The notes under the pieces were generated by a model. That model was not told the origin of the DNA and ran no database searches. It was given only the letters and a program-made list of their open reading frames with translations. A stretch of DNA of 63,971 bases. Origin: Carcharhinus longimanus. Taxonomy: Eukaryota. Positions 40 through 60,142 of this stretch are shown here, piece after piece (the stretch's first letter is position 1; each line of letters opens with the position of its first letter). The stretch spans positions 6,553,271-6,617,241 of the forward strand of contig JASCQW010000119.1 in NCBI GenBank assembly GCA_030264375.1, written 5' to 3'. Made by a program: the position numbers and the translations under genes.

Positions 40-75
40 CTGCATCCTCCAAAAGACTTGTACACGCAAATAGTT
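40..75 (-). CDS. Micro-exon type A (36 nt), [12 protein letters not shown]
   Basis: gtttcag|AACTATTTGCGTGTACAAGTCTTTTGGAGGATGCAG|gtaaat. Confidence 0.75.
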
Positions 76-3000: not shown

Positions 3001-6000
3001 ATAATTACATATTATTTTAAAATTACAGCTCGACTTGCGCTAAAGTGTCAGATTATGCAAGCACACTTAAACATTCTGGTGTTAGCGTGAGTGGGCGAAC
3101 ACGGCCACTACGGACTCAGGGTCAGGTTCAACAGCGGTACAGCTTCATTTTAACGTCGACGGAGGTGCAGTCAGGGCATACAAACCGAAATGTCCCGAAA
3201 CCACTCTAAAGACCCGCCGCAATGGGCTACAGTTATACCTGAACTTGATACATTGTACAAATGCTAATGTTTTGTTTACAGTATTCGACTCTGACCATCC
3301 TGTTTTGATGTCTTCAAGTATTGTAAAAATGTTTTTAAATGTGTGTTAATCGTTTCTGTCTGATGGGTTTGTTAAAGGTCTAGAATCTCCGGGGTTTGAA
3401 CAATCGGTGTTTGACTAGTTTGTGGGGCCAGGGATGCTTCCTCAGTTATGCTAATATTTAGGTGTCTCCAAAGAGGGTTGCTTGATTAGATCAGAGATGC
3501 TGATTTGGTTGGATGGAGGTGTACTTTTTAATTTAGTTCCTGTAGGTGTCATCCTGTCCGGTTCCTTTTTGTGCCCTCATTTGCATTCTAAAAGCATGTC
3601 CTTGCCTGTTAGTCTGTGTCTGTTCCCTTGTGAACTTTTGTGGGGAGGCTCTGAGTGTAACTTTAGTCTGCTTCCATATTGTGTACCCAATTTCATAAAA
3701 AATGTTGTCCGATAACACTGGTGTATATTAGGGATAATTTATAATGTGCGGTGGCAGCATTTTGGTGTGATAATGCTGGTGCATCTTGCAAAAACCTTTC
3801 CTTGAATGCCATTCTTATTGAAGACAATATAAGCAAACACCGCACACAATATTTTTTAATTGTTTTCAAATTAGTTTAAAATAGCACATTTATTTAATAG
3901 CTGGCTTAGGCACATGTTGGATAAGTTATGTTCCAGCTACTTTTTGAGGTTGCAAATTTGAAACGCAAATATGTCAATGATTTCATGGATTTGAGAAATG
4001 TCCTTGATTGATGTATCCATGAGGACAGAAACGTAAAATCCACACAAATGCCGAAGAGAACATCTGGGTAATCGAGTCTGCGCAAACGTTCCGAAAGAGC
4101 ATATCACCCCTCCACAGCCGCCCACCTCCCCCCACCCCTCTTCGCGTAATCTCGTGCATTCGCCGTGTATAATTCATCTAATTGACGCATTTCTTTGGGG
4201 GGGTGGATAATAGCAAGAAGTGTTAATTCCCAAAGAAATCGGACAATGGGAGAGTGCAAACTCGAGACAGGCAATCACCCAAGACTCAATTCAAACCGAC
4301 AGCCTTGGAACCGAAAGGGAGTATTGTTTTTTTTTGCCATCGTGCTGGCGAAAATAATTAAACGTCTTGTACAAATGCTTTTGCAAATGACAGAGCACAG
4401 ATTTCTGACCTAAATTGTCTAAATCATGTTGAAATTTCGCAAAATCTGTAATACAGATAACAATTATTTTACATTTAATTGAAACATGCATGGACACATA
4501 AAACATATGAACCAGGGTAGACATTCGTCCCATCGAGAGTGCTTTGTCATTCAATGTGAACATTTAACTTAATTGCCTGATAACATGTTTCCCCATTAGC
4601 CGTTGAACATGTATGTCACAGAAACTATTTGAAACATTTTCATGAAAAAAAAGTCATCACAGCTATTTTTGTGCCAATGGGTGCTCCTGGTTTACTACAC
4701 TTTGGTTGAAGGCATTTCTCCTCACCGCTGTCATTTAAAGTAATGGTATGGAGTCTGGGTCTCCGAAAATTGGAGATACCGTTCCTGTATTACCTGTCCA
4801 GCCCAGTTACAATTACGCAGGTTTCTGTGAGATCCCACTGATGAATTCCAACTCAATCGAATGCAATCGCATCCAAGTCATTGACTGATTTTGCATTGGT
4901 ACTGCCATCCAAACATCAGCTTAGGACATCTTCAGTGCACTCCCTCGAAACAAATAACATCTTTCTTCAGATAAGAAAAACAAATGTGCAGAAAATGTTC
5001 CAAATAGGACCTCACGAATGTTCTGTATAATTCGAAAAAGACATGCTGCTCTGGTACTCGAAACTCTTGATTTAATGGCCAACATACCAATTGATTTCTA
5101 TACTCTGCTCGATCTCCAAAGATATGTGGGTTAGGTTGATTGGCCATGCTAAATCGCTCCTTAGTGTCCTGAGATGCGGAGGTTAGAGGAATTTGTGGTT
5201 AAATTTGTTGAGGTATGTGGGTAGGGTCTGGGCAGGATTGTGGTTGGTGCAGGCTCGATGTACCAAGTGGCCTCTTTCCGCACTGTAGGGTTTCTATGAT
5301 TGTATGATTCTATGACTTGCGTGCTTACATTCATTGGCTGCATTACGAGGGCACACAGGAACATTCTTGATCATATAATCCAGAATTTTCCTCACTTCGA
5401 ATGTCTTGCTGACCGATCTACGATTCCATTTTATTTTTTGTCTCTGCCTCCCTTTTTAATTATCTGGGAGCTTTTCGTTAACTATCCCAAATCCCTCTGA
5501 AGGGTTCTGGAGACCTAACATCTTGGGAAGTGACCGCCAATGCATCTGCTATCAATAAATCGTTATTTTCTTATATCGTGGTGGTGTAGTTTTCCAGGAC
5601 CTGGGGATTCCTCGGCTTCGATGCTCGCTATTCGTGGAGCAGAATTTCCACACTAATGCTATATTAACTCAACTCGTCCCCCTGAATCAATCCTGTGTTC
5701 CCAGCATTTCCCCTACGTTATGTCGGTTCCCATTTGTAATGACTGAAACAATGTATGCATTAATGCCATCAGAAATGTTTCTGACAGTGAAGGCTTATGC
5801 ATTATGCATCTGCATTATACATCTGTCTTATCCATTATTTTGTCTGTGTTTGCCTATATAAAACTTAACAATTATTTTTTTTATTTCCCTTAACCTTGCA
5901 GTCACACATTTATTCCCTTCTTAATTAATCTCTTAATCCACTTCAGCTACGCACTAATTTGTTCCAACCATCAGGTTGTGTTTAATTTCCCCTTGGTCAT

Positions 6001-9000
6001 TAGCCTTGTATTTTTCCTTTGATCTAATACCACCGCTCTTTTCCGTGTAATGCATGGCTTGATCTCCCTTTCCTTTTTCGTTTTGCTCCAGGGAGTAATA
6101 ATAATTCTTGCAGTCCACCAATGAGCCCTTTGAATGTTTTCACAGTACTCGTCTGATTCATCTTTTGTCACTATCTAAATTAGATTTCAGACACATGACC
6201 ATCAAAACATTTTGTCATTCCTTCTATTCCTTCAATTTACTTGCTCAAAGTCTTGAATATTTCTTGTTGAAGAATAAACAATATGAACATAGAAACATTC
6301 TAATGTAATTCTTACAAATGAAGTTATTCGTTCCATAAAAAAAAATCATGTCCGACGGATGATTTATTTGATATTTCAGTTTTGGACCACTTGATCTGTA
6401 GCTCCTTTACAGTCAGTAACAGGAAAATGTACAATGATTAATACAAAAATTGCTGATGACATGAATGCATACTTTGTTTCAGTCTTTACAAATGAGGACC
6501 AAGAATATTCGTTTGTTTCTGCAAATACGGATCAAATGCCCTTATCGCACTCCACATGTCAGGATTATTTTTCAATTGTCAATAAATTATGTTAATTATT
6601 GCTGGGTATAATTTGCACATTTAAGCAGCATATTTTAACGACAGATACCTTTATTTTTTTCTTTGAGATTTTTCTCTACCATGAGGTAAAAACAGAAATA
6701 TTGGAGAAGTCAAAATAGTTCCATTTAATAATTGTGTTTTCTTACAGTATAGCCAATGTAATGTACATTTGACTGTATGTAAAACATATACAAACACATT
6801 AGTTTCAATTACGCATAATGATTAACTGATGACAAGCGATTGTTGCCCATAATAATGTTGAAATCGGACTGGTCTCCTTTTCTGAACATTGATCTGAGAG
6901 TTATTCACTTAAGTCTAACACAACTGATTTTGGCTGCATACATGTGAGGAATATATAATCGAAGTTAAGACCAGACATACAATCACCCAGTTAAAGCTTA
7001 ATGAGAAACAGTTAAATATGCATTAATAATTGCAGCTTCAGATGTATTCATGTTTTAATTGCTGGGAATTCTGGCATCCGGGTCATAGCAAAATTTGCTT
7101 AAGTGCAATGCCAGGGTCTATTGCACAAAATGCGGCATTAATGAGTCTTGCATTAAAGTCGCACATGGTTTTGAGAGGCAACCGAAAGGAAGACGCAACC
7201 TGCGATCTTATGTTGCAAAATGAGATCCAATTGCGTTCGAAAAATGCCACAAAGGGAGCGGCACTGTTTCCATGGCCGACATTTGCTCCCCGTTATACAA
7301 TCAGCGCATATAATTCGATAATGGTCGAAATGCCATTTGCATAAATTTTGGAGTAATTGCTAGGTCTCCGTTGTAGAGATGAGGCAATTGCGTTTGCATT
7401 GTTGCTGCATTGGTTGCAAACTCATGTACGAGAACAAGTTGTTATAAATTGTGCCACGCATTTTCGCAACACATGCAAAGCTTCAGAATCTAGCCACAAT
7501 ATCTAAATTAATGCGTAATTTTCACAACCGAACTTTTGTCAACTGGCAGGAAACATTCACTCGTTGCAAATTGCATGCAGCATGATTGGAACAGTTATCA
7601 CTCACCTGCCTCAGTCAAAGCTTTTTGATAAACACCTATCTCTACAATNNNNNNNNNNAAAATCAAATCATGTCAAATTTTTGGTGCATTGAAATTCCAT
7701 GCATTCCCCTCTTGGAAATGCAGACGACAAACGAATGTTTCAAGCTCTTCAAATTCGGCATTCATTCACAACTTTATTGATTTGCAAGAAACGAAAAAAA
7801 GTCACAAATGTCAATCAGTCCCGCCACAAATTAGAAACAGAGACTTGTGGTATGAAAATAAACATGCATAATGTAAACGAATACTCATGTGGATATGTAT
7901 TTGTATGTTTCCGTTGTTATATTCATTGAGCTATTTCAAGGGGGCGCTCCTAACGCAAGCTTTGACTGCAAGCAACGTAGCTTAAGTGGGAAATGAGGAG
8001 GGAGGCTGCAGTTGCGAGGAACAAGAAATAAACTTTAAGTCGGGACACAAATGGAGATATATTTATGAAGACTATTCCTGTATTGGGATGCATGATTTCA
8101 TTGAGTTAATTAGTTTGACAAAAGTGTCTGGGATTTACAAAAACCCATAACTCCATCATCTTGAACATTCATGAACTTTTCTTGTTTAACTTCCTATTCT
8201 CCAGCATGTAGTATTCTATATTGTCCTTTCATACAGACACCATATTTATATTGCATGTTCGTTGTCGGAATTCATTATACATTTTTTAAACTCGTGATTA
8301 ATCATATTCGTACGAGAATCAGTTTCTTGCATATAATTGGAATGAACGATTGAAGAGCACGGGAGGAAGACATTTGTCAAAACTTGAACTTGACATCAAC
8401 CATATCCATCCTGCTCAACGGCACTTTCCAGCATTTGTGACGGAGACTGTGACAGAGCATGCACATTTTCAAGAGCCCTGTAATGTATTGTTTTCGCTGA
8501 GTTCTTCTGAACTTCAGATTTGATTCTTATTACATTTGACGGCAAAACATGTCGGAGTTTCTCCGCACCTCACGTCATAACATAAATATGAGTGTTGATT
8601 ACAGAATCTACTACCCAACGGCATGGGGTGAAAGCTCCCACTCTCTCATGACCCCAAACAATTATACACAATTTAATAAGTCCAAAGTTTAATTATGACT
8701 GTCATAATAATACTTGAATGAAGTTCTAGTGATAATCATCTAGTGGCTGCACTCTGGCGCCTATTCGGCTACACTGGGAGATAATTTAGCATGACCAATG
8801 CAACGAACCAGCATGTATTTCAGAGTGTGATAGAAAACCAAAGCAGATGGACGGAACACACGCAGACACGTGGGAAAACGCGGAGGGAGCGCACAGACAA
8901 TGTTCAAAGCCGGGATTGAGACCCATATTTCGGGCACTGTGAGATAGCACTGCAAAACACTTTGCCACCGTGTCACCCTTAGACTTGCAGCGGTCCTGAC

Positions 9001-48000: not shown

Positions 48001-48517
48001 TAGGACTAGCAAATCTAACATAACTGAATGCAGGGTTCGGTTTACAAACAACCACAATATCTGTTTATTTTCTTCTGCCGCCAGAAATGCGTTTAGACTT
48101 TTTGAAAACTGCTTAGAAGAAACAGGTATAGGAAATGAATAGAGAAGGAAGCATATCTTACTCAGTTCGTTTAAGCCTCTTTGGAAGATGTTGGGATCTG
48201 CAATGCCGAGAGAGATGAAAATCATCATTATGTCATCTGATAAAGGATTAATTTAGGATATTGCACAGGTTTTGCAAAACTTCCATCAATATAATAGCTC
48301 TCGTACTCCAAGGGTGAAAAAATATATATTTTCATCATTCACCTCAAAGTCAAGCAGCGATCACTTGAGACATGCATGCTGCCATCAACAGTTATTTTTC
48401 AACTATTTCAAAGATGTGTGACACACCTCACATAATGTCCAATAATTTCACAGGCAACCAGAAATAACCCACATTAATTGAAATTAAGGAAATGTAGGCT
48501 AAGAATAATTGCTAAAC

Positions 48518-48578
<61 letters not shown>

Positions 48579-51500
48579 TAATCATGAACACACAGATAGA
48601 TGGAGAAATGGAAAATGTGAGAGATGGATGGTTGGTTGGATGCATGGATGGATGGATGGATTTTGCATCATGGTAACTGCTTCAATAACGACTATCATAC
48701 GTTCTTATTTATGGATCTCTTCGAAGGTTCATATAAAATGTTGTGAATACAAACTCACTGATGTATCAAGGGCCTTAATGGACTGACAACAGATTGTAAC
48801 ATTTGGGATGGATGATTGGATGGATGAATGGATGGTTGGATGGATTGACAACAAATTGTAATATTTGGGATGGATGATTGGATGGATGGATGGATGGATG
48901 GATGGGTGGGTTAATGGATGGATGGATAGATGGGTGGATGGATGGATGGATTTTGCATCATGGTAACTACTTCAATAACGACTATCATATGTCTTTATTT
49001 ATGGACCTCTTAAGAGATTAACATAACGTGTGAATACAACCTCACTGACATATCAAGGGCCTTTACGGATTGACAACAAATTGTAACATTTGGGATGGAT
49101 GGTTGGATGGATGGATGAATGGATGGATGGATGGATGGATGGATGGATTGATTTTGCATCATGGTAACGATGTCTTTATTTATGGACTCTTAGAAGACTA
49201 ATATAAAATGTTGTGAATACAATCTCACTGACGTATGAAGGGCCTTGACGGATTGATAACAAATTGTAATATTTGCACCGACACATCCAAAGTAAGAGGG
49301 ATAAACAGTTAGCACTGTTAAGTTACGAACCACCAATTTCTTCACCCGTGCGTGTTTCTGGAAATAAGCAGAATAATTTCTTAATGCACTCCCAAATATT
49401 TCCAGTAATCCATAATTAGGCAACAACTATCTGGCATTGTGCTTGCGCAAAATAAATAAATAAATAAATAAAACGCAGGGCACACTCGGCGTTAAATGCT
49501 GAACTGATAACTATGTGAAAAACATTGAATTTGTGAAAAAAATAACTATTCTCAGAAAGTCTGTCGCAGTAACCCTGGGATAATAGTGTTGGTGAGCATT
49601 GTTTGAGTAGCAATACAAATTAGTCAATGTGATTTACGAAGCCATTCATTTTATTTTCCTCATCACAGATATATGTGTGCAAGGATAACAATTCATTTCT
49701 GTGTCCACTGTATGACGTTTCATATCACATTGCATGTTACAGCAGAAGTTGTAAAATGAAACAGCTTAAGAGTGTAAGAGTTTAATGTCATGGAATTTTT
49801 GATCATTTGCATGTCACGCGGGCCCTCCCTTAATGTGCCTCCAAATTAAACAATGCAATTGTGCTGAAGAATTTGGAACATATCAAACAGTGAGCGGGAT
49901 GCAAATGTGTTGCAAATACAACAAATATTGCATCCTTCAGGGGGTATATTTCTTTTCAGTGCGTTCGGGTGCACTAATCTTCTAAAGTTTTATTTCAATT
50001 TCCGTGAAGCAATTGGAAAAGCATTTCCCCAGGTATATTTCCTTTTAGCTCGATACATTATTCGTGGATTGGTGCCGGAACAATGGAGTTATTTAGTCTT
50101 CGAATTGATTTGAGTATGCATTGGTTGTCTTTACCCACGAAATGGATACAAAATTGGCTTGATGTCAGAAGACAGAGGGTGGTTTGAGTGAGTTGATTTT
50201 CAAACTGGAAGCCTGTGAACAGCGGTGTGCCTCAAGGTCTGGTGTTGAGTTCACTGTTATTTGTTCATTCATATTAATGATTTGGATGAAAATTTAGTAG
50301 GCATGGATAGTAAGTTTTCAGATGACATTGAGATTGGTGGCATAATGGACAGTGAAGGACATTAGGTAGGATTGAAACGGCATCTTGATCAATTGGGCCA
50401 GGTGACAAATGGTAGATGGAGTTTAATCTAGATGAATGCAAGAGGGTGCATTTTCGTAAATCGAACCAGGACAGGACTTACTGAGTTAATGATAGGGCAT
50501 TTGGGACGGTTACAGAACAAGAGATCCAGGACCACAGCTTCATATTTCCTTGAAAGTGGATTCACAGGTGGACAGAGTGGCGAAGAAGACACTCGGCATG
50601 CTTGGTTTCATTGGTCAGAACATTGAACACAGGAGTTGGGACGTCTTGCTGAAGTTGTTCAAGGCATTGGTATGGCCACCTTGGAGTACTGTGTACAATT
50701 CTCGTCATCCTATTGTAAACAGAAGGATACTATTAAGAATGCAGAAAAAAAATAGGATGCTGCTGGGACTTGATGATTTAGATTAGTAGGAGATGTTGGA
50801 TAGATTGGGACATTTTCTCTGGAGCGTAGGAGGTTTGGCAGTGATCATACAGAGAATTATAAAATAATGAGGGCCATAGATCAGCTAGATAATCAATAGG
50901 TTTCCCCAAATGTAGGGGTGTCTAAAGCTACAGAGCATAGGTTTAAGATGAGAGTGAGAGATACATCAGGGCCCAGATGGACTTTGTTTTCGTTCAAAGG
51001 GTGGTAGATGTTTGCAAAAACCTGCCAGAGGTAGTAGTAGAGACGGGTATAATTTTATCTTTTAAAAAGCGTTTAGACAGTTACATGGGTAAGATGAGTA
51101 GAGAGGGACACGGGCCAAACTCGGGAAATTGTGATTAGTTCAGGTTTTAATAAAGGGGCACCATGGACAAATTGGACCTAATGGTTCGTTTCCATTCTGT
51201 AAAGCTCTATGACTGGATGACTCCATGACTTTGACACAGAACAGAATTCATGGATCGTTTCACAACTGTCCTATTTCCCTGTGGTAACCCATCTGTCTGG
51301 CGTGTATGCTGACTGAGTACGGTTCTTGTGAAAATAACCTTTCCAAGATATACAGCTTGACGATTTTAATAACCTATTGTTAATAAGACATTTAATTACA
51401 TAAAATGTGCCCAGAATTACAGCTACAGGCGAATTATCCCTGCCAACTGAACTTGGAGCGAATTCAAATTCAGAATGAATTATGGGTTTTATTTAGAGTA

Positions 51501-54500
51501 TATCTGCAGGGTTTAGCTTATGCATTTAATTTTCGAATCGGAAAACAATTTGTCACCTAAATCACTTAAATATTTCTTGCAGCCGGATAGCTCTGAAAAA
51601 AAAAACACACACACTATGAACTTAGGACACCCCAAAACTATTTAGAACAATTTACACTGTCATCGCTGTTACACTGTCAGAACGTCTTTGAACACAGTTT
51701 GTTTAATATGATCAGAAACATCAATCTAGGAGCACGGATCCCACATGGATTGGACTAATTCAACAATGCGTCCTCCCAAGACTTCCTCAATGACTATTCG
51801 GGCGACGAAATAATGTTGGTTGTTTCCTTGACAAGCACAATCATATGGAAAGCGAATGAAATACAAATTATTACATGAAGATTACTGGATGTTCAATGCA
51901 AACAAAAAATCANNNNNNNNNNNNNNNNNNNNNNNNNNNNNNNNNNNNNNNNNNNNNNNNNNNNNNNNNNNNNNNNNNNNNNNNNNNNNNNNNNNNNNNN
52001 NNNNNNNNNNNNCGTAGCCCAACCGATCAGGAGGCCGTTAATATTTTGTTGAAAATTGTTCAAGTATTACTTCATTAACATAAGTCCAGGTGCAGATCTA
52101 TGTAACTATACTCTAATCCCCGATCTATTTGCGTATTAGACCAGCCTAAATGTGATTCGTTTCAGCTACATCCTTTGATGGTGAAACATTACGCCACATG
52201 GACATCGATTATTCCATCGCTTCTGCGTTCGTATTTATTGGTTATTATTAGTTCTGAACCTCACCACGATAAGAAATAATATGTCTCTACCAACTCAATA
52301 AATTCGTAAAGGTACCTGGTTCAACTTAGTGAACTTGCCAGTTTATTCAACTCTCAATCATCACCGTACCACCGCACATCCTACCGCACCCCCTACTCGT
52401 GGACGTTAACCAAACTTCGCCTGATCACTCGTTCCCTGATACGTCGAAGCTAACTGTGACATTGCTCATTGGAACCTTTACTTCATAATTAAAATAATCG
52501 AAATGTGTTTTGCACAAAACCCGATATATGTTCATTCCTATTCGATATAATTGAATCTTTGTTAACCTGTGATATAAATTTAGATATTCTAAGAAAGATA
52601 TTTCGCAATTCGTTGCCTTTGCCAATGCATGCTTTTTTTTTAGCAGTGTTCCAAGCCATAATTCTAATTCATAACAATATTTAACATTTAATAATATTTA
52701 AAGTGGTAATACCTGAGCAGTAGAACTTCACACCTTCTGCAACTGGCAACAAATGTCATTTGCTCTTACACGAGCATGCTGTCTTGAAGGAATCTGAAAA
52801 CTTCATGTAAGTCGTCCATGTGGGCTATATTTGCTGACCGTGTTCGTCCATCTGTTTTGTTACACATCTTCAAAGGTATTTGGATGATATTTGTGCGAAT
52901 AGAATCGATCAATACAACTTCTGCAGTTCAGATAAGCCCATTCACTCCATTGAATCGCTACCAGCTCCCTGGCAGTACATCTACCACATGCCCACCACCC
53001 ATTCTATCCCGTTTATGCAATATTCAGTCTTGAGTTAACCGTTTTAATGACAGTCAAAACACTTATCTGACAGACAATGAAAGACCATGGAATGAGGCAA
53101 TCAATACACTGGCTTGCAAAGATTAACTACAACATCTTTCAAAGATTCCTCATGATCAATTTCAAGGGATTACAATGACCAGAATAGTAACAGGAAGAAA
53201 AAGAAATAATGTTGCTAGATAATTATGACAGAGACTGGTTGTTGGACAGAATTCACTCGACAGCTATCAGTATCAATAAGCAGCTATAATGCACAGGTCA
53301 AAGTGTAATGGGGTGCCCTTTTCTTCCCTGGACGAGTACAGCTAAAATGATGATTCATTTGCACGGTTAAATGCAAATAAACCTACTTACAGACACTTTA
53401 TCTACCACTTTTAGGATTAGATTCCTCTGTCACTACCAAAATGTCAGTGCATAGGATCGACCTAATGGACTAATAAGCCTCCCCATGCCTACTGACAGAG
53501 CAAGTTCCAAAGGCCGTCTCACAGCTTACATGACGGGAAATATAAAAAAAAACATTGATGGGGATACTACTCACTGCAAATTCAAATACAACAGCAACGA
53601 TTTTGAGGCCTGTTAGCACATTATGATCACGACTAAATTTTATGCTATTCTGTGAATACCTAGCAGCATATGATGTACTGCAAGTGTTCATGAATTTGTC
53701 TCACCCTCACATTATCAAGGGTTGTTCCAAAAAATGCTGATTTTCCAGCCAACTTCAAAGTGCAGGAAACAAGAATGGTAATAAGTAATTCGGAAATAAA
53801 GCGTGTCAGGCAAAAATCCCGATTGAAAATATGATGGATCTCCAAAAATCAACGTACGTTCTCAGAAGTGATGGACTGAGAGGGACAAGAAATAATTTCC
53901 CTGTGTGAGCATAAGGATGGTAACTGAGCTGAATCTGAAATTAGTATCAGACAAACATGATGATACTAATTTAACTGAATTCAAGTCTGAATAAATAAAA
54001 TACAGATTAGAATTTAAAACAAGGTACTAAATAGAGAGTAATTGCGCAAAGTTACAACGGGGTAACAAAAAAGGAAGGTACACAATGCAAGCTTTATGAA
54101 TGAAATATACATCAGTTTGCTAAATAGATGGCTAATTTGGGGTACAGAAAATCATTTAAACATCGGAAGTGTCAAACAAAACTGAGGCAAAGAGGTAGAA
54201 TTGCTAATGGTGATAACAAAGAAAGATTTAAAACACTAGGTACTGAGAACTTGATTGAAAAAAAACAAAACACATACGTTATCAGTGATAAACGTTGAAG
54301 GCTACCAAATGTTTGACGAAATAAATGGACAAACACTGCATTAAAAACAAATCTGGAACGGGGCGATGTGTTGTACAGAAACGTCTAATTCTACTTTGTC
54401 ACACGCTTCATTCAAAGTTGTTAGATGCTGTTTTCTGTAATTGCAGACCAGTAGCATAAATCATATTGGTGAAAAAAAAAACTGTCTGAAAGCGTAACTC

Positions 54501-57500
54501 AGTGCAATGTCATGGTCCCCACGCAAATATTTGGTGACTGCTTAGGCACAAGAAACACATTTCTAGTGGGACGATTTTGTTCAATTAAGTTATTTGAGGT
54601 CTTCAACGAGGTAACGTCATGGTTGATGAATGTGTTAGGAGCGACGTATTGTATTCTCCGGCAAAACATTCTAAAATTCTAAGGCACAGGGGTAGGTCGT
54701 GGAAAGAAGATGCACTCAATATTGAAGCTGGCATGGCAGGTTTAGAAAAAAAATACGCAATATTTCAGAACATGACCATTAAAAGTAGATTTTAAACAGC
54801 AATTTTAAAATCTATGTTGAAAACATTTGCGATCACAACTTGAACGTAACACCCAAATCTGGCCAATTCGTTGTATGAAGCACGCAGAACGATTGGATGG
54901 TTTAGAAACAATTCAAAAATACAGTTCCAGCAATGTGAAAAATGTACTATTTGGATCATTTTGAGATGGTAAAATTATGAAGGAAATATGCAAAGTTATT
55001 CAATGCTAAGAAAGCAGAACAAAGAAAATAGGGTAAGCTTTCTATCGACGTTCGGATCAATACTAGAAACTTTCAGGTGCAAAGTGATTTTCAGAACAAT
55101 TAGACACTTCGTGAGTGTAAGAAACTTTTGCAGCACAAGTGTTGACGTTCTAGAATGTCTTGTCTAAGCTTATGTTGGAATCAGAATTCAGGACCTTCAG
55201 AAATCAATTGAACAATTAGGTAAAAAGAACAAAATGTGGGCTGCGAATAGCTGGGCGGTTTTGACAGCGCAAATTACAGGGACGGAATAATCGATCGGTA
55301 TATTGAAACTGTTCAATGGCTTTGATCTGTTAACTCTATGCTCCTTACGGAAAAGCATCATGTTTTATCTGAGATGTCAGCGTCTCTGAAATGGTCTGAA
55401 GTGCAATGGAACCTCCTGTTCTACAACATCCCTCCACTCCTCCCTCAAAATTTGGTGTTTCCATGTGATAACGTATGTTAATCGACTATACTTCCGCATT
55501 CAACTTTTACGGAGGAGTTAGAATGCTACAGTGGAAACGCAGATAATAAAGATTCTTGTCATTGCTATACATATGCCAGAATATAACTAGCATTGATATG
55601 AATAGGACATGAACCAACTGTGGAAACATAAATTCAATTCAGTTTTCATGTTGCTAAGAAGGAATAGAAAACACTTTTTACCTTTAGCTCTTAAATTCAG
55701 CGCCTCTTCTGTGACAATTTAAAACAATTCAAGTTGACAAAAAATAGTGACATAGATTCCGAAGCGGAGAATTGAGGTTTTTGCTGTATGTTTTGCAAAT
55801 GTACGAGATATATTTACAGGCAAGAAATAATACACGAACGGGAGAGTGTAAACAATCCACTGGCAGGCGAAACAATCAGTGACAATAAGAACATAACATA
55901 AGAACATAAGAAGTAGGAGTAGGAGTAGGCCATCTAGCCCTTCGAGCCTGCCCCGCTATTCAATAAGATCATGGCTGATCTGAAGTGGCTCAGTTCCACT
56001 TTCCCGCTTTCTCCCCATAANNNNNNNNNNNNNNNNNNNNNNNNNNNNNNNNNNNNNNNNNNNNNNNNNNNNNNNNNNNNNNNNNNNNNNNNNNNNNNNN
56101 NNNNNNNNNNNNNNNNNNNNCCCCCAACTCCATGCCCCCTAACCTTCTGAAGCAACCTTTTGTGCGGGCCCTTATCAAAAGCCTTCTGAAATCGAGAAAT
56201 ACTACATCCACCGGTCCCCCTCTGTCTACCGCACTAGTCACACCCTCATAGAATTCCAATAAATTCGTCAAAGAATGGCAGCGCAGGTTGTGCCTTCATA
56301 TCATTGCAAATGTTGGACACAAATGTCTAGTGACAATAAAACAACATAGGTCGGACACGTGAATTTAAATAGATAGTAAGTTCACAGAATACTGGTGCTT
56401 TTAAGTATTGCCATCACTGAAATAAATCTTTCCAGGTAGAGAAAGAGGCAACTTCTTGTCCTGAACAAAGAATTACATTTTTCTGTCATTCTAATGTTGA
56501 CGAGACCGACTGGACTAGCGAAATTCTTTGTACTTTTGTTTTCGCCAATGAAATACATTTTTGAGCTGATACAAATTCCATCGCCTCCACATGCGTTAAA
56601 TAACATCTACAATTTTGGTTAAGCTGGTATGTCTGTTGAAACTTGAAAGATGGATTTCATAACTCAGAAATCGTTGAGCTCTGTAAGTTGTCGAATTTGC
56701 CATTGCCTTTTGGAACCAAAATTAATAATACAAATTGTTACATTGCACGTGTTTCGTTATGATTTTTTTTAAATGCCGATTATCATTTTCATATTTCCCA
56801 TGCCTCGCAGCTGACATATTCTCCTCTTCCACCTTCCTCCCAGCCCTTGTATTTTTTCCCCCCCATTACGTTTCAATTTCCCCCTCAATGTGAGCTACAT
56901 TGCAAGATAAATGCACCGGCTGGAGAAATGTTCCCACAATTAGGAATTCAGACTTATTTCCCAGAGACAAACATTCATGGCACTCTTTCATTCCAATGGC
57001 GATAAACAGATTTAACTGCACACTGCGTTTCAATTGGTGTGGCAGAAACCTCGAAAGATACAAACAGAAAATGTTCTGTCAGTACAGGTCACTGAACTTC
57101 CTTGGCACTGTATATTTGTTTTCATTTATTTCCCACTAAGCAGCATGTCATTTCTACGAGGAGCATGCAGAAAACAAGATGGAAGTTAACGTAAACATAC
57201 GAAGATGTCCATGTTTCATTGAAATACAATGTAGGTCAGATATTCCGAGACAAGTTATTGCTGTATTTTCTCAAATTAACTGCATTGCGTGTACGAATTA
57301 CTTACTTAACATTTCTAAGGATTCTTTGCATTTTGCGTGTTCTAGAATGCCAAAACAAATCACTTATACACCTCATTTTAAACTGAAATCGTAAATTTCC
57401 ATTATGACGTAGAGTTGCATGAGACCAGATTATGGTCTTGCATTGGCTGAACTTTAATGGCGTGTAAGCTCTTCCATTTGTGGAGTTTCAATAATGATCG

Positions 57501-60142
57501 GCAGAACTCACAATGACCACACCAGTGCAGATCCGAAATTATTGGAATTCCCATTGTTCCATCAATTTGAATTATGATGTGCTGTGTGAACAAGATTACC
57601 TCCTGATTATATAAAGCATTGCATCTGTGACGACTTTGATAAAATAGTTTGCAACAATTTGCGTTATCCATCTCCACATACAGACTACAGTGTGCTTGTT
57701 ACAAGTGAAAATGAAGAGATAATGTAACTGCCAAAGTGTTTGAAACGTGGTGTGGTATCGCTTTGTTCACTATTTTCGTGAAAGATATTCAGCACAGATT
57801 GCATAGCATTAAAAGGAAAACGGCAAATCACAGACAGAATTTGGGCACATTAGAACAACTTTCTGCATAGCACCTTTGGTATAAAAACTGCCATAAAAAA
57901 GACGGGAGGTTCAACTATTGTTCCATGATCATTTGTGCCACGGTCGATTATATGATTACTAAATCGTGGTTGATGACAATATAGAAACACATAGTAATCA
58001 TCATGTATATACTTAAAGGGAATACATGTTTTGTGACTGGTTTTTGGAAATCAGATGCTTATGAGGCGATATAAATTAACAAACGAACATTTTGAAGTGC
58101 AATGTCTAACGGAGAGTTAAACAGAGGCTGAAACGTTTCTGCTCGATTAATTGTCCTTAATATTTGAACGAATGCTGAAGGAACAAGACTCTTCTTTTGT
58201 CCTCCTTTTTGAACATTTTGAGGAATATTGACATCTGTCGTTGTCTGCCAAAATAATTAGCGAACAGGCTCGATATTATGAGGCGTATTATGATGTTAGC
58301 CTTGGTGAAAACCATTTTACTTTTAGCATCAATGTAAGCATCATGTTTCCGTACCTGCTCTAGTTCTATTGATCCGTTTGGAATTTTTTATGGTAACAAA
58401 CAGCTTCTAGAAACACAGTTACACGATTTTAAAACGAATTAACAGATCCCATGCTATTTTAATACACGTAAACGTGACAATGCATCTATATTAACTGATA
58501 ACTGTCCCAATTCTATCCAATGACGGTTATTTTCCAAAATCTTCGGACTCTGAAATAGTTCCTACTGATTGGAAGATATCTAAGGTCAGCCCGGTATTCA
58601 AAAACTGAGGGAGAGAGAAAACAGTGAACTATAGACCAGTGAGCCTAACGTCAGTATTGGGAAAGTTGGATTATCATGGACTTTGTAAGTAGGTATTTGG
58701 AACTCTGTGGCATAATGAGTCAAATTCAGCATGGATTTACAAAAGGGAAATTTTGTTTGACGATTCGATTGAAATTCTTTGATCGTGCAACTGGTTGAGT
58801 TGATCTAGTGGATGTGGTTTATTTAGACTTTCAGAAGGCTTTCGACAAAGTCTCACACAACAGATTACTACGGAGACTCACAGCGCCAGAATTCGACATC
58901 GGGCTTTGGTCACAGTCTGTGTAGAGCCTGCACGTTCTCTTAATGCCTGCGCGGCATTCCTCCGGCTGCTTGGTTTCTTTTCACAGTCGGAATGATGCGC
59001 TGTCTAGGTGCATTGCTCATGTTAATTGTTCCCTCGTTCTACCAGAGTAGTCACCGGAGTGTGACGACTGTTTGATTTTCATAGGATCTTCATTGCAGTG
59101 TTAATGCAAGCCTTCTTGTGATACGAATGAATAAACTTAAAAAGTTTAATCCCTTTGGGCAGAAAAATAGAGCGAGACCTGCCTCTTGACTCTCAGTCAG
59201 CAGTCTGCAGTGGAACTCTTAAACTGCAGGAAACCTTGGTACGAGAGGGTGAGACAAAAATCCTTGCCTTTTACAGACCCTTTGATAGTGACATCATAGT
59301 CCCTGACTGCAATTTCCAGGAACAATTGTAACACTGATCCAATAAAAATAATGTATCTTTGTGTTTTCTCCCTGCAAGTTCATCTACAGTCGTTTACATG
59401 ATTGCTTTGTTTCCTGACAAACAACTCAATTAAAGCCTTCTCTGAAACCTCAGGTGACAAACCTAAAAGTAACAAAAATAAGCATTTCAGTAATTAGGCC
59501 CAATTTCTCCTCCGTAGAATCCACACTTGTGCTCTAGACTGCAGGCAATTGACACTGTAATCAATATTGAATAATAAGATAAACACTTCGTAGGAAACAT
59601 GACCCAAACGAATTTCTTGAAGGCACAGTAGCCCTTCAATAGATAAAGCTTTGACCATCAGTTTTAGGTAAAAGTTTTGATTGCCAGCTCCACATTTGGC
59701 AAGCCTTTTTACACAGAACGCAAACTTAAAACACAAATTAATTGACTGGTCGGATGGACTGGGTTTTGAAAAGTGGGCATTTTTTGGTTGATTAACCAAA
59801 AACATGAATTTCGCCCTTTCATTTGTACATGTGAATCAATTTCCTGTAATTATTTCTTTTATACTTCCTGAGATGGGTGTTTCTGTGCGTTTTACTGTGT
59901 AATCTGTTGGACAGCATCTCGGAAAATGATTTTCCATCTCAATATCACTAGTGCAATTTAACCTAGGTGTTGATCCCCAATTATGTGGTGGGACGTATTG
60001 TCGTAAAATACCTCGCCTGAGGAAAACATGCTACCACGGCACAATAGTTTCTATGCAAACCTTGATATGTGCACATAGAATGCATTCAAAGTTAACTGAT
60101 GTCAAAAGTAATTACCTTGTTCGTTTGATTTCAATTTTTTTT
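40..60142 (-). CDS. Partial multi-micro-exon gene encoding a long 21-aa-repeat coiled coil (both termini not found in window)
   Basis: 21 exons of exactly 36 or 27 nt in near-strict alternation, all phase 1-1, joining without stops: [222 protein letters not shown]. Confidence 0.85.
200..1375 (+). mobile_element. Decayed L2/CR1-group LINE, RT C-terminal fragments and 3' tail
   Basis: [17 protein letters not shown] resembles the LINE motif MQQDLDNIQAWADKW. The 3' tail aggacaattagagaggcg...ccaagccagtgac resembles the tail of the SINE at about 44020. Confidence 0.55.
2897..2923 (-). CDS. Micro-exon type B (27 nt) with non-canonical acceptor, VAKYNAKEK
   Basis: tttactcttacccat|TTGCCAAATACAACGCAAAAGAGAAAG|gtaagc. 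Strong donor, correct slot and length, but CAT instead of CAG. Confidence 0.55.
4410..4445 (-). CDS. Micro-exon type A (36 nt), [12 protein letters not shown]
   Basis: tctgtattacag|ATTTTGCGAAATTTCAACATGATTTAGACAATTTAG|gtcaga. Confidence 0.85.
5105..5315 (+). mobile_element. HE1-like V-SINE, 3' half
   Basis: V-domain-like tccaaagatatgtgggttaggttgattggccatgctaaat plus CR1-type tail ending ctatgattgtatgattctatga. Confidence 0.75.
6649..6675 (-). CDS. Micro-exon type B (27 nt), EKNLKEKNK
   Basis: cctcatggtag|AGAAAAATCTCAAAGAAAAAAATAAAG|gtatct. Confidence 0.8.
7060..7496. mobile_element. Possible decayed non-autonomous DNA transposon (Harbinger-type TIRs)
   Basis: Imperfect inverted ends gctgggaattctg ... 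cagaatctagcc. Confidence 0.3.
7606..7641 (-). CDS. Micro-exon type A (36 nt), [12 protein letters not shown]
   Basis: attgtag|AGATAGGTGTTTATCAAAAAGCTTTGACTGAGGCAG|gtgagt (the upstream tract falls in an N gap). Confidence 0.8.
8762..8975 (-). mobile_element. tRNA-derived V-SINE (HE1-like)
   Basis: Reverse strand shows a tRNA-like head (cacggtggcaaagtgttttgcagtgctatctcacagtgcc...) and the core gcattggtcatgctaaattatctcc. Confidence 0.75.
9269..9362. mobile_element. Short MITE-like element
   Basis: Imperfect TIRs gaccggaaattctcgcc / ggcggtaagcttccggc, GC-rich relative to flanks. Confidence 0.4.
9829..10170 (+). mobile_element. HE1-like V-SINE
   Basis: ggcggcataatggatagcactactgcctcacagccaggga head and cccaagatgtgcagctttggtggattggccatgc core. 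Confidence 0.75.
10546..10882 (-). mobile_element. HE1-like V-SINE
   Basis: Reverse strand: atgatggcacagtggttagcaccgctgcctcacagctgcagatatccggctcgattcccggcc head, V core and CR1-type tail. Confidence 0.8.
11653..11679 (-). CDS. Micro-exon type B (27 nt), EDKLKEKEK
   Basis: gtctcctgagcag|AGGACAAACTGAAGGAAAAAGAGAAAG|gtacat. Confidence 0.85.
13387..13422 (-). CDS. Micro-exon type A (36 nt), [12 protein letters not shown]
   Basis: cttttgcttgccag|AGCTGATGAAATTTCAGGACGATTTAGAAGATTCAG|gtgaga. Confidence 0.85.
13560..14455 (+). mobile_element. Decayed CR1 LINE 3' portion
   Basis: Degenerate RT C-terminus (ttatatacggtatttgtaaggcaacacctccagtactgcgtgcagttt, cf. LYKALVRPHLEYCVQF) and 3' UTR. Confidence 0.65.
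14600..16980 (+). mobile_element. Decayed CR1 LINE: ORF1 SGNH/GDSL esterase region then ORF2 endonuclease region
   Basis: [10 protein letters not shown]...[39 protein letters not shown] matches the CR1 ORF1 esterase pattern. VPITETCL...FRKDR matches the APE endonuclease. Interrupted by a SINE. Confidence 0.75.
15558..15900 (-). mobile_element. HE1-like V-SINE inserted in CR1
   Basis: Reverse strand: gggcggcgcagtggcacagcggttaccgttgttgcctcacagcgacagggacccgaattcaattcc, V core, CR1 tail. Confidence 0.8.
16981..18110 (+). mobile_element. Two CR1 3' fragments
   Basis: [10 protein letters not shown]...[19 protein letters not shown]...[25 protein letters not shown]; second fragment [12 protein letters not shown]...FPMVG. 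Confidence 0.8.
18735..20160 (-). mobile_element. Decayed CR1 LINE RT region
   Basis: Reverse strand [26 protein letters not shown]...VTGCL and WNSL motifs. Confidence 0.6.
19138..19215 (-). mobile_element. Penelope pLTR remnant with degenerate hammerhead motif
   Basis: Reverse: CAC-CTGATGA-AGGGGCAGCACTCC-GGAAGCTC-GTG; homologous to 62480-62575 and 42881-42978. Confidence 0.6.
21451..21477 (-). CDS. Micro-exon type B (27 nt), EGKLKAKGQ
   Basis: ttattttcaacag|AAGGAAAACTGAAAGCAAAAGGTCAAG|gtaact. Confidence 0.85.
22400..23150 (-). mobile_element. Possible highly decayed Penelope-like element fragment
   Basis: Reverse translation ...KHEFCMQH...[20 protein letters not shown] loosely resembles PLE C-termini; weak. 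Confidence 0.25.
23330..23605 (+). mobile_element. V-SINE (second tail type)
   Basis: gtcactgtctgtgtggagtctgcaggttctc...cagtccaaagatgtgcaagttaggtgtattggacatgctgaattctc; tail gcaagcctacttgtgacgaataaac. Confidence 0.8.
24635..24670 (-). CDS. Micro-exon type A (36 nt), [12 protein letters not shown]
   Basis: ttttgtctgttacag|AAGAGAAAAGGCTGTTTGAATACGCAAACGAATTAG|gtgagg. Confidence 0.8.
   Translation of the reverse strand, partial: KRKGCLNTQTN
25589..25615 (-). CDS. Micro-exon type B (27 nt), EEKLKRKGK
   Basis: cgcttacaacag|AGGAAAAGCTGAAAAGAAAAGGGAAAG|gtattt. Confidence 0.85.
26183..26218 (-). CDS. Micro-exon type A (36 nt), [12 protein letters not shown]
   Basis: tctaaatttcag|ATTTAACAAAATGTCAAGATACTTTGGAAGATCTAG|gttggg. 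Confidence 0.85.
27240..27520 (+). mobile_element. CR1 3' fragment
   Basis: gggaagttgtttccactggcgggtgaatctagaactaggaggcatggtctc...aggaacttcttg...tgtggaattc. Confidence 0.75.
27957..27983 (-). CDS. Micro-exon type B (27 nt), EDKVKVKTN
   Basis: cttcacctttacag|AAGATAAAGTGAAAGTGAAAACCAATG|gtaagt. Confidence 0.85.
28172..28207 (-). CDS. Micro-exon type A (36 nt), [12 protein letters not shown]
   Basis: atttttgttccag|ACGTAGCTAAATATACAGAGTTGCTGAAGGTGTTAG|gtaaga. Confidence 0.85.
28322..30380 (-). mobile_element. CR1 LINE ORF2 (RT) fragment, frameshifted
   Basis: [31 protein letters not shown]...[26 protein letters not shown]...[17 protein letters not shown]. Confidence 0.9.
30420..31620. repeat. 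TG-rich low-complexity region with (GT)n/(GC)n microsatellite core at about 30689-30735
   Basis: gtgtgcgtgtgtgtgtgtgtgtgtgtgtacgcgcgcgcgcgtgcgtg and about 1.2 kb of degenerate TG dinucleotides. Confidence 0.8.
32319..32441. mobile_element. Short MITE (Harbinger-type TIRs)
   Basis: TIRs gcaggaattttaccacct / aggcggtaaatctctggc. Confidence 0.5.
33046..33072 (-). CDS. Micro-exon type B (27 nt), EDKLKSKNA
   Basis: tttgttcctgaacag|AGGATAAATTGAAATCGAAGAACGCAG|gtaagc. Confidence 0.85.
35791..35826 (-). CDS. Micro-exon type A (36 nt), [12 protein letters not shown]
   Basis: gttttccctcaatttag|ATCTAGCAACAAACCAGGAAACTATAGATGACTTAG|gtaggt. Confidence 0.85.
38093..38390 (+). mobile_element. V-SINE
   Basis: cttagcactgctgcctcacagcaccaggaacatggattcgatt head; gcattggccatgctgaattctccctcag core; gtgttaatgtaagcagacttgtgacac tail. 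Confidence 0.8.
38715..38990 (+). mobile_element. CR1 3' fragment
   Basis: acgaggggtcacgtgctaagggtgaggggggagaagt...tttttcacatagagggtcgtgggggtatggaatgaact. Confidence 0.75.
39060..39233 (+). repeat. Direct repeat copy 1 (about 174 bp; copy 2 at 44670-44844)
   Basis: gtcggtccaccttgttgtc...ctagctgtgcagatac occurs twice, about 12 mismatches by hand count. Confidence 0.9.
39560..40520 (+). pseudogene. HARBI1-like DDE transposase, frameshifted
   Basis: [22 protein letters not shown]...; [20 protein letters not shown]; WLMMPLRRP...[25 protein letters not shown]...[12 protein letters not shown]; acidic tail. Confidence 0.85.
42881..43114. mobile_element. Penelope-derived palindromic insertion with hammerhead ribozyme motifs
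   Basis: Inverted arms 42881-42978 / 42982-43076; degenerate TSD ttcagtagcct (42870-42880) / tccagtatcct (43115-43125). Confidence 0.8.
42936..42975 (-). ncRNA. Minimal type I hammerhead ribozyme motif (PLE-type), intact core
   Basis: ATTCAC-CTGATGA-AGGG-ACTAA-CCCT-GAAA-GCTA-GTGAGT: CUGAUGA, stem II, GAAA, NUH (CUA), and stem I TCAC/GTGA. Confidence 0.65.
43820..44090 (+). mobile_element. SINE 3' portion with a conserved central domain (MetaSINE/MER131-like from memory) and L2-type tail
   Basis: ttgtaaagacccatctgattcactaatgtcctttagggaaggaaat...ccttacccgatctgacctacatg; tail caattagggatgggcaacaa...aataaagaaaaaaa. Confidence 0.6.
44130..44660 (+). mobile_element. LINE endonuclease-region fragment
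   Basis: [11 protein letters not shown] / [12 protein letters not shown] / HYYRAKWD motifs (APE endonuclease C-terminus). Confidence 0.65.
44670..44844 (+). repeat. Direct repeat copy 2, running into a V-SINE (about 44797-45135)
   Basis: Matches 39060-39233; followed by tgtgggtgctccggtttcctgccacaccccaaaaatgtg and the tail gggtcgaagggcctgtttcccgtgctgt. Confidence 0.85.
46000..46260 (-). mobile_element. Gypsy-type LTR retrotransposon gag zinc-knuckle relic
   Basis: [32 protein letters not shown]: two degenerate CX2CX4HX4C knuckles, followed by MMVKLELNG (protease-start-like). Confidence 0.55.
47355..47381 (-). CDS. Micro-exon type B (27 nt), RSKLKMKDI
   Basis: tttctctccatag|GATCGAAACTGAAAATGAAAGACATAG|gtaatt. 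Confidence 0.85.
48162..48197 (-). CDS. Micro-exon type A (36 nt), [12 protein letters not shown]
   Basis: ctctctcggcattgcag|ATCCCAACATCTTCCAAAGAGGCTTAAACGAACTGA|gtaaga. Confidence 0.8.
48518..48578. repeat. (GATA)n microsatellite
   Basis: Perfect agat repeats, about 15 units. Confidence 0.95.
48620..49275. repeat. Composite minisatellite: three units of (GGAT)n plus a 120-140 bp unique segment
   Basis: gattttgcatcatggtaac...tttatttatgga...tgtgaatacaa...aagggcctt...gacaacaaattgtaacatttgg recurs three times. Confidence 0.9.
50130..51230 (+). mobile_element. CR1 RT and 3' end, decayed
   Basis: [55 protein letters not shown]; (ctatga) tail. Confidence 0.85.
51557..51592 (-). CDS. Micro-exon type A (36 nt), [12 protein letters not shown]
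   Basis: gttttttttttcag|AGCTATCCGGCTGCAAGAAATATTTAAGTGATTTAG|gtgaca. Confidence 0.85.
53000..55330 (+). mobile_element. Very old CR1-like LINE remnant
   Basis: A-rich strand bias with scattered degenerate EN/RT-like segments. Confidence 0.35.
55682..55708 (-). CDS. Micro-exon type B (27 nt), KEALNLRAK
   Basis: aaattgtcacag|AAGAGGCGCTGAATTTAAGAGCTAAAG|gtaaaa. Confidence 0.8.
55888..56270 (-). mobile_element. CR1 fragment (RT plus 3' tail, gap inside)
   Basis: [27 protein letters not shown]; tail ataagaacataacataagaacataagaagtaggag. Confidence 0.85.
57306..57341 (-). CDS. Micro-exon type A (36 nt), [12 protein letters not shown]
   Basis: tttgttttggcattctag|AACACGCAAAATGCAAAGAATCCTTAGAAATGTTAA|gtaagt. 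Confidence 0.85.
58550..58870 (+). mobile_element. CR1 RT fragment
   Basis: [43 protein letters not shown]. Confidence 0.9.
58875..59140 (+). mobile_element. V-SINE
   Basis: ctcacagcgccag...gtctgtgtagagcctgcacgttctc...cttcattgcagtgttaatgcaagcc tail. Confidence 0.75.
60116..60142 (-). CDS. Micro-exon type B (27 nt), EKKLKSNEQ
   Basis: ctctgttgcag|AAAAAAAATTGAAATCAAACGAACAAG|gtaatt. Confidence 0.85.

Follow-up and report, generated by a model that had tools for sequence, protein, structure and literature searches.

A minus-strand array of micro-exons ending in a B30.2 exon in Carcharhinus longimanus, and the coiled-coil rod it is predicted to encode

The stretch of DNA analysed here (the window; 63,971 nucleotides from Carcharhinus longimanus) lies in the middle of an array of micro-exons that, together with its terminal B30.2 exon, covers 844 kb on the minus strand. 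Judged from its sequence, the array is likely one gene of ~840 kb, with roughly 170 or more mini-exons joined in one transcript. On balance, its product is probably a soluble cytoplasmic rod, a parallel coiled-coil dimer of ~250 nm with a B30.2 tip that would act as a spacer or scaffold, and the exons of the window would all belong to this gene.

Micro-exons of the window

The window consists of AT-rich vertebrate DNA and carries interspersed repeats, presumably of shark type. Sequencing runs compared with it (X1-X4) behaved as DNA, and the genome designated organism C is colinear with it over 17.5-37 kb at an identity level of ~94-95%. The introns contain ordinary AGAT/GGAT and GT microsatellites (48518-49152 and 30689-30718). 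On the minus strand there are 18 strong exons of 27 or 36 nt bounded by AG and GT, every one of them open in phase 1, while the plus strand has none. At a score of >=16, the minus strand yields nine calls of 36 nt, nine of 27 nt and one of 12 nt, the last being a shortened version of the weak candidate exon at 49331-49357, compared to zero calls on the plus strand. With two weak candidates added to the strong exons, all 20 have yAG..GT ends and all 20 are open in phase 1, whereas phase 0 is open in 2/20 and phase 2 in 9/20.

Exon length was assessed from only those parts of the splice sites that lie in introns, from -220 to +500 kb around the window. On the minus strand, 88 calls have a length of 27 nt and 63 one of 36 nt, with 3-22 at other lengths, compared to nine at each of the two lengths on the plus strand; these same exons served as the training set for the splice matrices, though their length was not used. 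Together, the phase-1 frames and the two length peaks bear out the proposal of the earlier note that the exons are symmetric (phase 1-1). The span it had given, 40..60142, is likewise exact, with 60116-60142 as the first exon and 40-75 as the last on the minus strand. None of the 170 exons called in the whole array (see below) ends in T, and thus no junction is able to create a stop codon.

The 36-nt exons (A, 12 amino acids) and 27-nt exons (B, 9 amino acids) of the window are listed below in order of transcription, all on the minus strand and all from the splice-site scan.

40..60142, minus strand: window slice of the 844-kb micro-exon array, which continues beyond both window ends
60116..60142, minus strand: B exon, 27 nt, EKKLKSNEQ
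57306..57341, minus strand: A exon, 36 nt
55682..55708, minus strand: B exon, 27 nt, EEALNLRAK
51557..51592, minus strand: A exon, 36 nt
49331..49357, minus strand: weak candidate, 27 nt, ETRTGEEIG; strong acceptor, fits the coil pattern poorly
48162..48197, minus strand: weak candidate A exon, 36 nt; score 10
47355..47381, minus strand: B exon, 27 nt, GSKLKMKDI
35791..35826, minus strand: A exon, 36 nt
33046..33072, minus strand: B exon, 27 nt, EDKLKSKNA
28172..28207, minus strand: A exon, 36 nt
27957..27983, minus strand: B exon, 27 nt, EDKVKVKTN
26183..26218, minus strand: A exon, 36 nt
25589..25615, minus strand: B exon, 27 nt, EEKLKRKGK
24635..24670, minus strand: A exon, 36 nt
21451..21477, minus strand: B exon, 27 nt, EGKLKAKGQ
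13387..13422, minus strand: A exon, 36 nt
11653..11679, minus strand: B exon, 27 nt, EDKLKEKEK
8985..9020, minus strand: very weak candidate, 36 nt, inside the B-B break; poor donor, left out of the counts
6649..6675, minus strand: B exon, 27 nt, EKNLKEKNK
4410..4445, minus strand: A exon, 36 nt
40..75, minus strand: A exon, 36 nt

Among the strong exons, the alternation of A and B is interrupted between the B exons at 11653 and 6649 and between the A exons at 4410 and 40, where there are only weak fillers. The two weak candidates at 49331-49357 and 48162-48197 would together restore the alternation. A further candidate at 39363-39398 was rejected, as its splice score of 5.3 is weak and its inclusion would break the alternation.

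Extent of the array and its terminal exon

The region analysed beyond the window comprises 300 kb below it and 840 kb above it. In window coordinates, the array reaches from about +619 kb down to -217.6 kb. At a score of >=14 it contains 170 exons (88 of 27 nt, 61 of 36 nt, nine of 21 nt, six of 15 nt, four of 24 nt and two of 42 nt) that encode ~1,680 residues, while the plus-strand control at the same threshold gives seven calls of 27, 36, 21 or 15 nt. The count of 170 is a floor, because 14% of the array span reads N. The 5'-most exons are 21 nt in length, followed by those of 27 and 36 nt and finally by B30.2.

The terminal B30.2/SPRY exon (C119:6328407-6328921) has a phase-1 acceptor and a stop codon, and is located 6.7 kb past the last strong A exon of the array and 224 kb below window position 1. 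It matches Pfam SPRY at 7e-12, and the nearest solved domains are those of BTN3A1 (PDB 4n7i; 116.5 bits, 6.9e-33), TRIM7 (98.3 bits) and TRIM21 (96.5 bits). The earlier note had advised a look below position 40 for exactly such a B30.2/PRY-SPRY exon, and had suggested either a BG/butyrophilin-like tail or a C-type-lectin stalk. The lectin stalk is excluded by an array that ends in SPRY. As for the tail, the butyrophilin-like end holds, with BTN3A1 as the best solved match, while membership of BG does not, given the presence of B30.2 and the 27/36-nt exons.

No gene-sized repeat was found within the array: the longest colinear chain is four exons, a length also reached in 5/200 shuffles. Neither a second B30.2 exon nor a head exon of the kind described below was found inside the array on C119. 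The character of the array changes near +90 kb and +500 kb. At window-relative -11 to -111 kb, 15-nt exons recur (VKTMK, EETLK, ERVKK, ERLKE and EKENN), mostly between two A exons, which suggests a higher-order repeat with regular register breaks.

Several other features were observed in the neighbourhood. On the plus strand, a second micro-exon array lies at window-relative +720 to +900 kb, head to head with that of the window, in which 27/36-nt exons come first and 21-nt exons later. Below the B30.2 exon, a nectin/PVR-type IgV exon (L038:564-1097, minus strand; Pfam V-set 3.5e-12, best solved match nectin-1 at 5.9e-16) is followed, near window-relative -283,600, by a TM-like exon and then a short exon, together a small nectin/TIGIT-like gene. 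This is the only IgV and TM gene nearby, and it was rejected as part of the array gene as it is located after the stop, 54 kb downstream. Between it and the B30.2 exon is an open frame of a rhodopsin-family GPCR (L036:8507-9430, plus strand; 7tm_1 1e-13).

Heptad register

One A and one B exon together encode 21 residues, or three heptads. Across the array exons, hydrophobic peaks fall at A2, A5, A9, A12 and B4, and the register shift is 0 at AB and BA junctions, 5 at AA junctions and 2 at BB junctions. In the 3' half of the array, which includes the window, 50/86 junctions are AB or BA, compared to 30.6 for shuffled order (p=0.0002), and the amplitude at period 3.5 is 0.119 vs 0.064 (p=0.002, 500 exon-order shuffles); in the window alone, period 3.5 is significant at p=0.008. 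In the 5' half, on the other hand, the signal at period 3.5 fails to reach significance (p=0.08), there is a weak preference for period 3.6 (p=0.02), and a second 27-nt class appears. The annotated paralogue (XP_072329363, mapped on C81) also has A-A junctions. The three-heptad module is thus a feature of only part of the gene, and a clean heptad coil does not extend along the whole rod. The three-heptad A+B module of the earlier note is right within these bounds. Over the whole array, Cys occurs at the predicted d position in 12/61 A exons (position 5) and 12/71 B exons (position 7).

The upstream end and the C81 paralogue

In the 5' gap upstream of the array, 13% of which is N, neither Ig motifs nor RING or B-box sequences turned up, no TM candidate was convincing, and tblastn with 164 proteins, 18 of them bearing an Ig motif and 39 a RING motif, returned no match. 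The 50-70 kb before two tandem paralogues yielded no Ig, TM, RING or B-box exons, and the 55 kb above a C81 head yielded no Ig or TM exons. An all-against-all comparison of four upstream regions found SINE and LINE pieces only and no shared first exon. The search above 60142 for signal, IgV and TM exons that the earlier note had proposed thus came out empty, both here and before the two tandem paralogues; the start of the mapped paralogue has no TM either, and the immune-type receptor of that note is not supported.

That paralogue is represented by the Scyliorhinus torazame model XP_072329363, which begins with a short acidic head. The head matches three exons of the 132-nt type on C81, in each of which an ATG stands 14 nt past the acceptor and conservation starts at the ATG; the ATG is present in 4/4 copies of the head, with the motif MAxPxDEYxNIGT. 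From the head onward, the model was traced on the C81 paralogue exon by exon, and nine of its first ten micro-exons had been called independently by the scan. There are two discrepancies, namely one scan-called exon on C81 without a counterpart in the model, and one B+A pair that the model holds twice where one genomic pair matched. The head exon joins an A exon directly, with no TM between. This mapping validates the exon scan and shows splicing from head to coil without a TM. The head exon itself is 132 nt in length, has phase 1-1 and stays open back to its acceptor, and a further coding exon may therefore lie upstream of it on C81. The acidic YxNI motif of the head could be a phosphotyrosine docking site. 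No head exon of the C81 type was found on C119 in the fetched sequence or in two genome searches, where 13-14% of the span and 5' gap reads N, and a first coding exon of the array gene was not located.

Below three head exons (MAxPVDEYxNIGT) at C81:92.29-93.34 Mb there is a single B30.2 exon of the family, at 91.99 Mb. Past the second head, H1, the array begins anew before B30.2 is reached: the upper copy matches the catshark protein XP_038671249 to about residue 342, and the next copy restarts at residue 62 of XP_072329363. Because of this restart, the C81 locus is read as a tandem series of partial copies, among them copies without B30.2, above a single B30.2 exon, and for the same reason a single gene on C119 is not automatic.

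Two database models, XP_055510696 and XP_042192744, start with hydrophobic signal-like stretches. The best signal-peptide candidate in the genomic sequence, on the plus strand at +705,726, was rejected as an ATT microsatellite.

A family of coiled-coil and B30.2 proteins in cartilaginous fishes

A search with the B30.2 domain returned chondrichthyan proteins with a coil and B30.2 under generic names in Callorhinchus, Scyliorhinus, Narcine, Leucoraja and Cetorhinus, several of them labelled 'TRIM39-like', and the family thus ranges over sharks, rays and chimaera. Relatives of the same layout include Callorhinchus XP_042192744 (1697 aa) and S. canicula XP_038671249 (945 aa). A segment of TM strength is absent in 11/11 relatives checked, with a 19-residue hydropathy of <=1.6. 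The present genome has eight family B30.2 exons: two on C81 and six on C119, where the five further ones reach as far as 11.3 Mb and all six are within one 5-Mb cluster. Both C81 exons are inside a dense cluster of several dozen SPRY exons at C81:85-102 Mb.

In a quick tree of 76 rows, drawn from 159 domains and six genomic exons, labelled by regular expression and with unlabelled rows left out, the 15 family rows (domains of relatives plus the six exons of C119) group as a single clade with an SH-aLRT of 100. The family stands apart from 44 rows with RING/B-box motifs and 17 with Ig motifs, which intermix. The tree places the family with neither TRIMs nor Ig-bearing proteins, and does not separate a BTN from a TRIM origin. 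As leads only, the ESM Atlas contains SPRY clusters of 1277, 1579 (scores 0.93, 0.91) and 1802 aa, with V-set, Ig and RING absent among the families shown. When long relatives were compared with the C119 array by tblastn, only B30.2 matched, because the micro-exons are too short and too divergent for this method. A protein search for longer relatives with the single B30.2 exon gave nothing at 1e-20, which is weak evidence. No description of the family was found in the literature searched, which was mostly open access.

Alternative explanations

If Ig and TM exons lay in masked or unrecognised upstream sequence, the array could form the giant cytoplasmic tail of a membrane receptor of the BG/butyrophilin type. 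The array has 21-nt exons first, then those of 27/36 nt, then B30.2, in the order to be expected of a butyrophilin tail; the terminal exon scores higher with BTN3A1 than with TRIM7 (116.5 vs 98.3 bits), and the N positions of the 5' gap (13%) leave room for such exons. However, the upstream region is blank for Ig motifs, convincing TM exons and tblastn matches, the same blank is seen before the two tandem paralogues and above the C81 head, the mapped paralogue starts without a TM, and the only IgV and TM gene nearby is beyond the stop. Such a receptor is considered unlikely. A secreted rod with B30.2, or a C-type-lectin stalk, is scarcely credible: the signal-like N-termini of XP_055510696 and XP_042192744 and the Cys residues at d positions would be in keeping with it, but the array terminates in B30.2 with no lectin domain, the skate N-terminus ends ...PA|EEKV, as would be expected if the model reads through an intron acceptor, and the best genomic signal-peptide candidate is a microsatellite.

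It is improbable that the array comprises several tandem genes or partial copies, the last alone with B30.2 and some perhaps silent, in which case the window would lie in the last unit or in a rod without B30.2. No colinear duplicate run rises above the shuffle level and no head exon was found inside the C119 array, though old and divergent copies would escape both searches; the three heads above one B30.2 on C81, with an array that restarts after H1, and the shifts in character near +90 kb and +500 kb speak for such units. A different question is whether the coil could be a molecular ruler tuned by splicing, in which A+B pairs would be skipped in a regulated way, so that rod lengths differ in steps of three heptads. 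Any subset of exons stays in frame, many isoforms are annotated in relatives, and one ESM Atlas cluster carries the name 'isoform X51' (score 0.76, a lead only). Skipping was examined in four annotated isoform sets of relatives, with 20 records, all gene models of paralogous genes. The ten distinct internal gaps measure 6, 7, 8, 8, 9, 9, 9, 11, 12 and 23 aa, none of them the 21-residue pair and one a multiple of seven (7 aa, in an older record) that would keep the register, and several of the skipped blocks are non-coil linkers. In two gaps there is a change from I to V at the junction, as predicted by phase-1 splicing. The models of relatives annotate single in-frame skips, whose frequency such models do not give. 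An index of RNA runs listed no match to the B30.2 exon of the array and its 3' flank, which speaks neither for nor against skipping. The combinatorial, length-tunable coil envisaged by the earlier note is therefore not reflected in these isoforms, which skip in frame but singly, and a regulated ruler appears decidedly improbable.

Proposed product

The soluble rod is likelier than the receptor, because the short acidic head of the mapped paralogue is spliced directly to the rod. All exons of the array would be spliced into one transcript, giving a rod with a predicted length of about 1,700 or more residues. Two such chains would zip into a parallel dimer ~250 nm long, at the textbook value of 0.15 nm per residue, with both B30.2 domains at one end. 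The product would resemble a BG/butyrophilin tail minus its Ig domain and membrane anchor, and may work as a scaffold or long spacer, keeping a tip that binds a ligand at a distance from the opposite end. Its length would be set mainly in evolution, by duplication of exons and exon pairs: uniform phase 1 would permit the gain or loss of exons without a frameshift, while selection on the coil would filter for register and keep A and B alternating. Skipping of single exons would then be tolerated leakage that kinks the rod, and not a tuned ruler.

A broader picture, offered with little confidence, is that of an ancient, previously undescribed family of cartilaginous fishes in which megabase genes with hundreds of micro-exons encode soluble rods of 250 nm that carry B30.2 sensors at their tips. 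Rods from tandem partial copies, which have head exons of their own but lack B30.2, could pair with full-length chains, splicing would set length and kinks cell by cell, and the rods would serve inside the cell as a scaffold of variable length, immune or cytoskeletal, for which mammals have no counterpart.

Comparison with known systems

In the excerpts of the cited accounts used here, chicken BG genes encode a long coiled coil from tiny split-codon exons, with a true heptad that spans exon borders and an exon number that varies between genes (PMC4046983, PMC5938342, PMC8813856). In the same excerpts, BG has IgV and TM but lacks B30.2, and its exons number 13-36 with a length of 21 (18/24) nt (PMC4046983, PMC5938342, PMC8813856). 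Zipper protein in chicken, a soluble BG tail, is described there as regulating actin-myosin (PMC4046983, PMC5938342), and it is, by analogy, the nearest functional precedent for the predicted rod. As far as these excerpts go, the shark array shares with BG a coil made of tiny exons; it differs in its ~170 exons, mostly of 27 and 36 nt, in its terminal B30.2, and in that Ig and TM exons were not found. Exons of the BG type, 21 nt in length, make up 9/170 in the shark array.

Butyrophilins, as partly described in one of these accounts, have the layout IgV-IgC-TM with only a few heptads (PMC4046983). They resemble the shark array in a heptad region built from small phase-1 exons and followed by a C-terminal B30.2 in the terminal exon, whereas the shark array has residues for >200 heptads and no Ig or TM was found upstream (13% of the 5' gap reads N). 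TRIM proteins with B30.2 (TRIM7, TRIM21 and TRIM39) are similar to the predicted shark product in their soluble coiled coil and B30.2. In contrast, the shark rod would be far longer, and no RING or B-box was found upstream with the 39 RING-motif proteins or in the paralogue model that starts with the head. Enterophilins of the rodent gut combine a soluble extended leucine zipper of about 30 heptads with B30.2, the same domain layout as is proposed for the shark product. The CD23/FCER2 stalk is built of a 21-residue repeat, and schistosome micro-exon genes of symmetric, skippable exons. The former has a 21-residue unit in common with the shark array, though the shark unit is split 36+27 and there is no lectin domain; the latter share the symmetric micro-exons, while the models of relatives show single skips only, with no sign of a programmed combinatorial kind.

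The gene architecture is extreme, with some 170 or more exons, each of 15-42 nt, spread across 0.84 Mb, and annotation pipelines fragment such genes or mislabel them as TRIM39-like, golgin-like or TPR-like. The array also offers a natural test of frame symmetry and heptad register as constraints on exon duplication and skipping. The shark gene joins a long coil of the BG type to a B30.2 of the butyrophilin type, which are kept apart in birds and mammals, and thus bears on the origins of the BG, BTN and TRIM tails.
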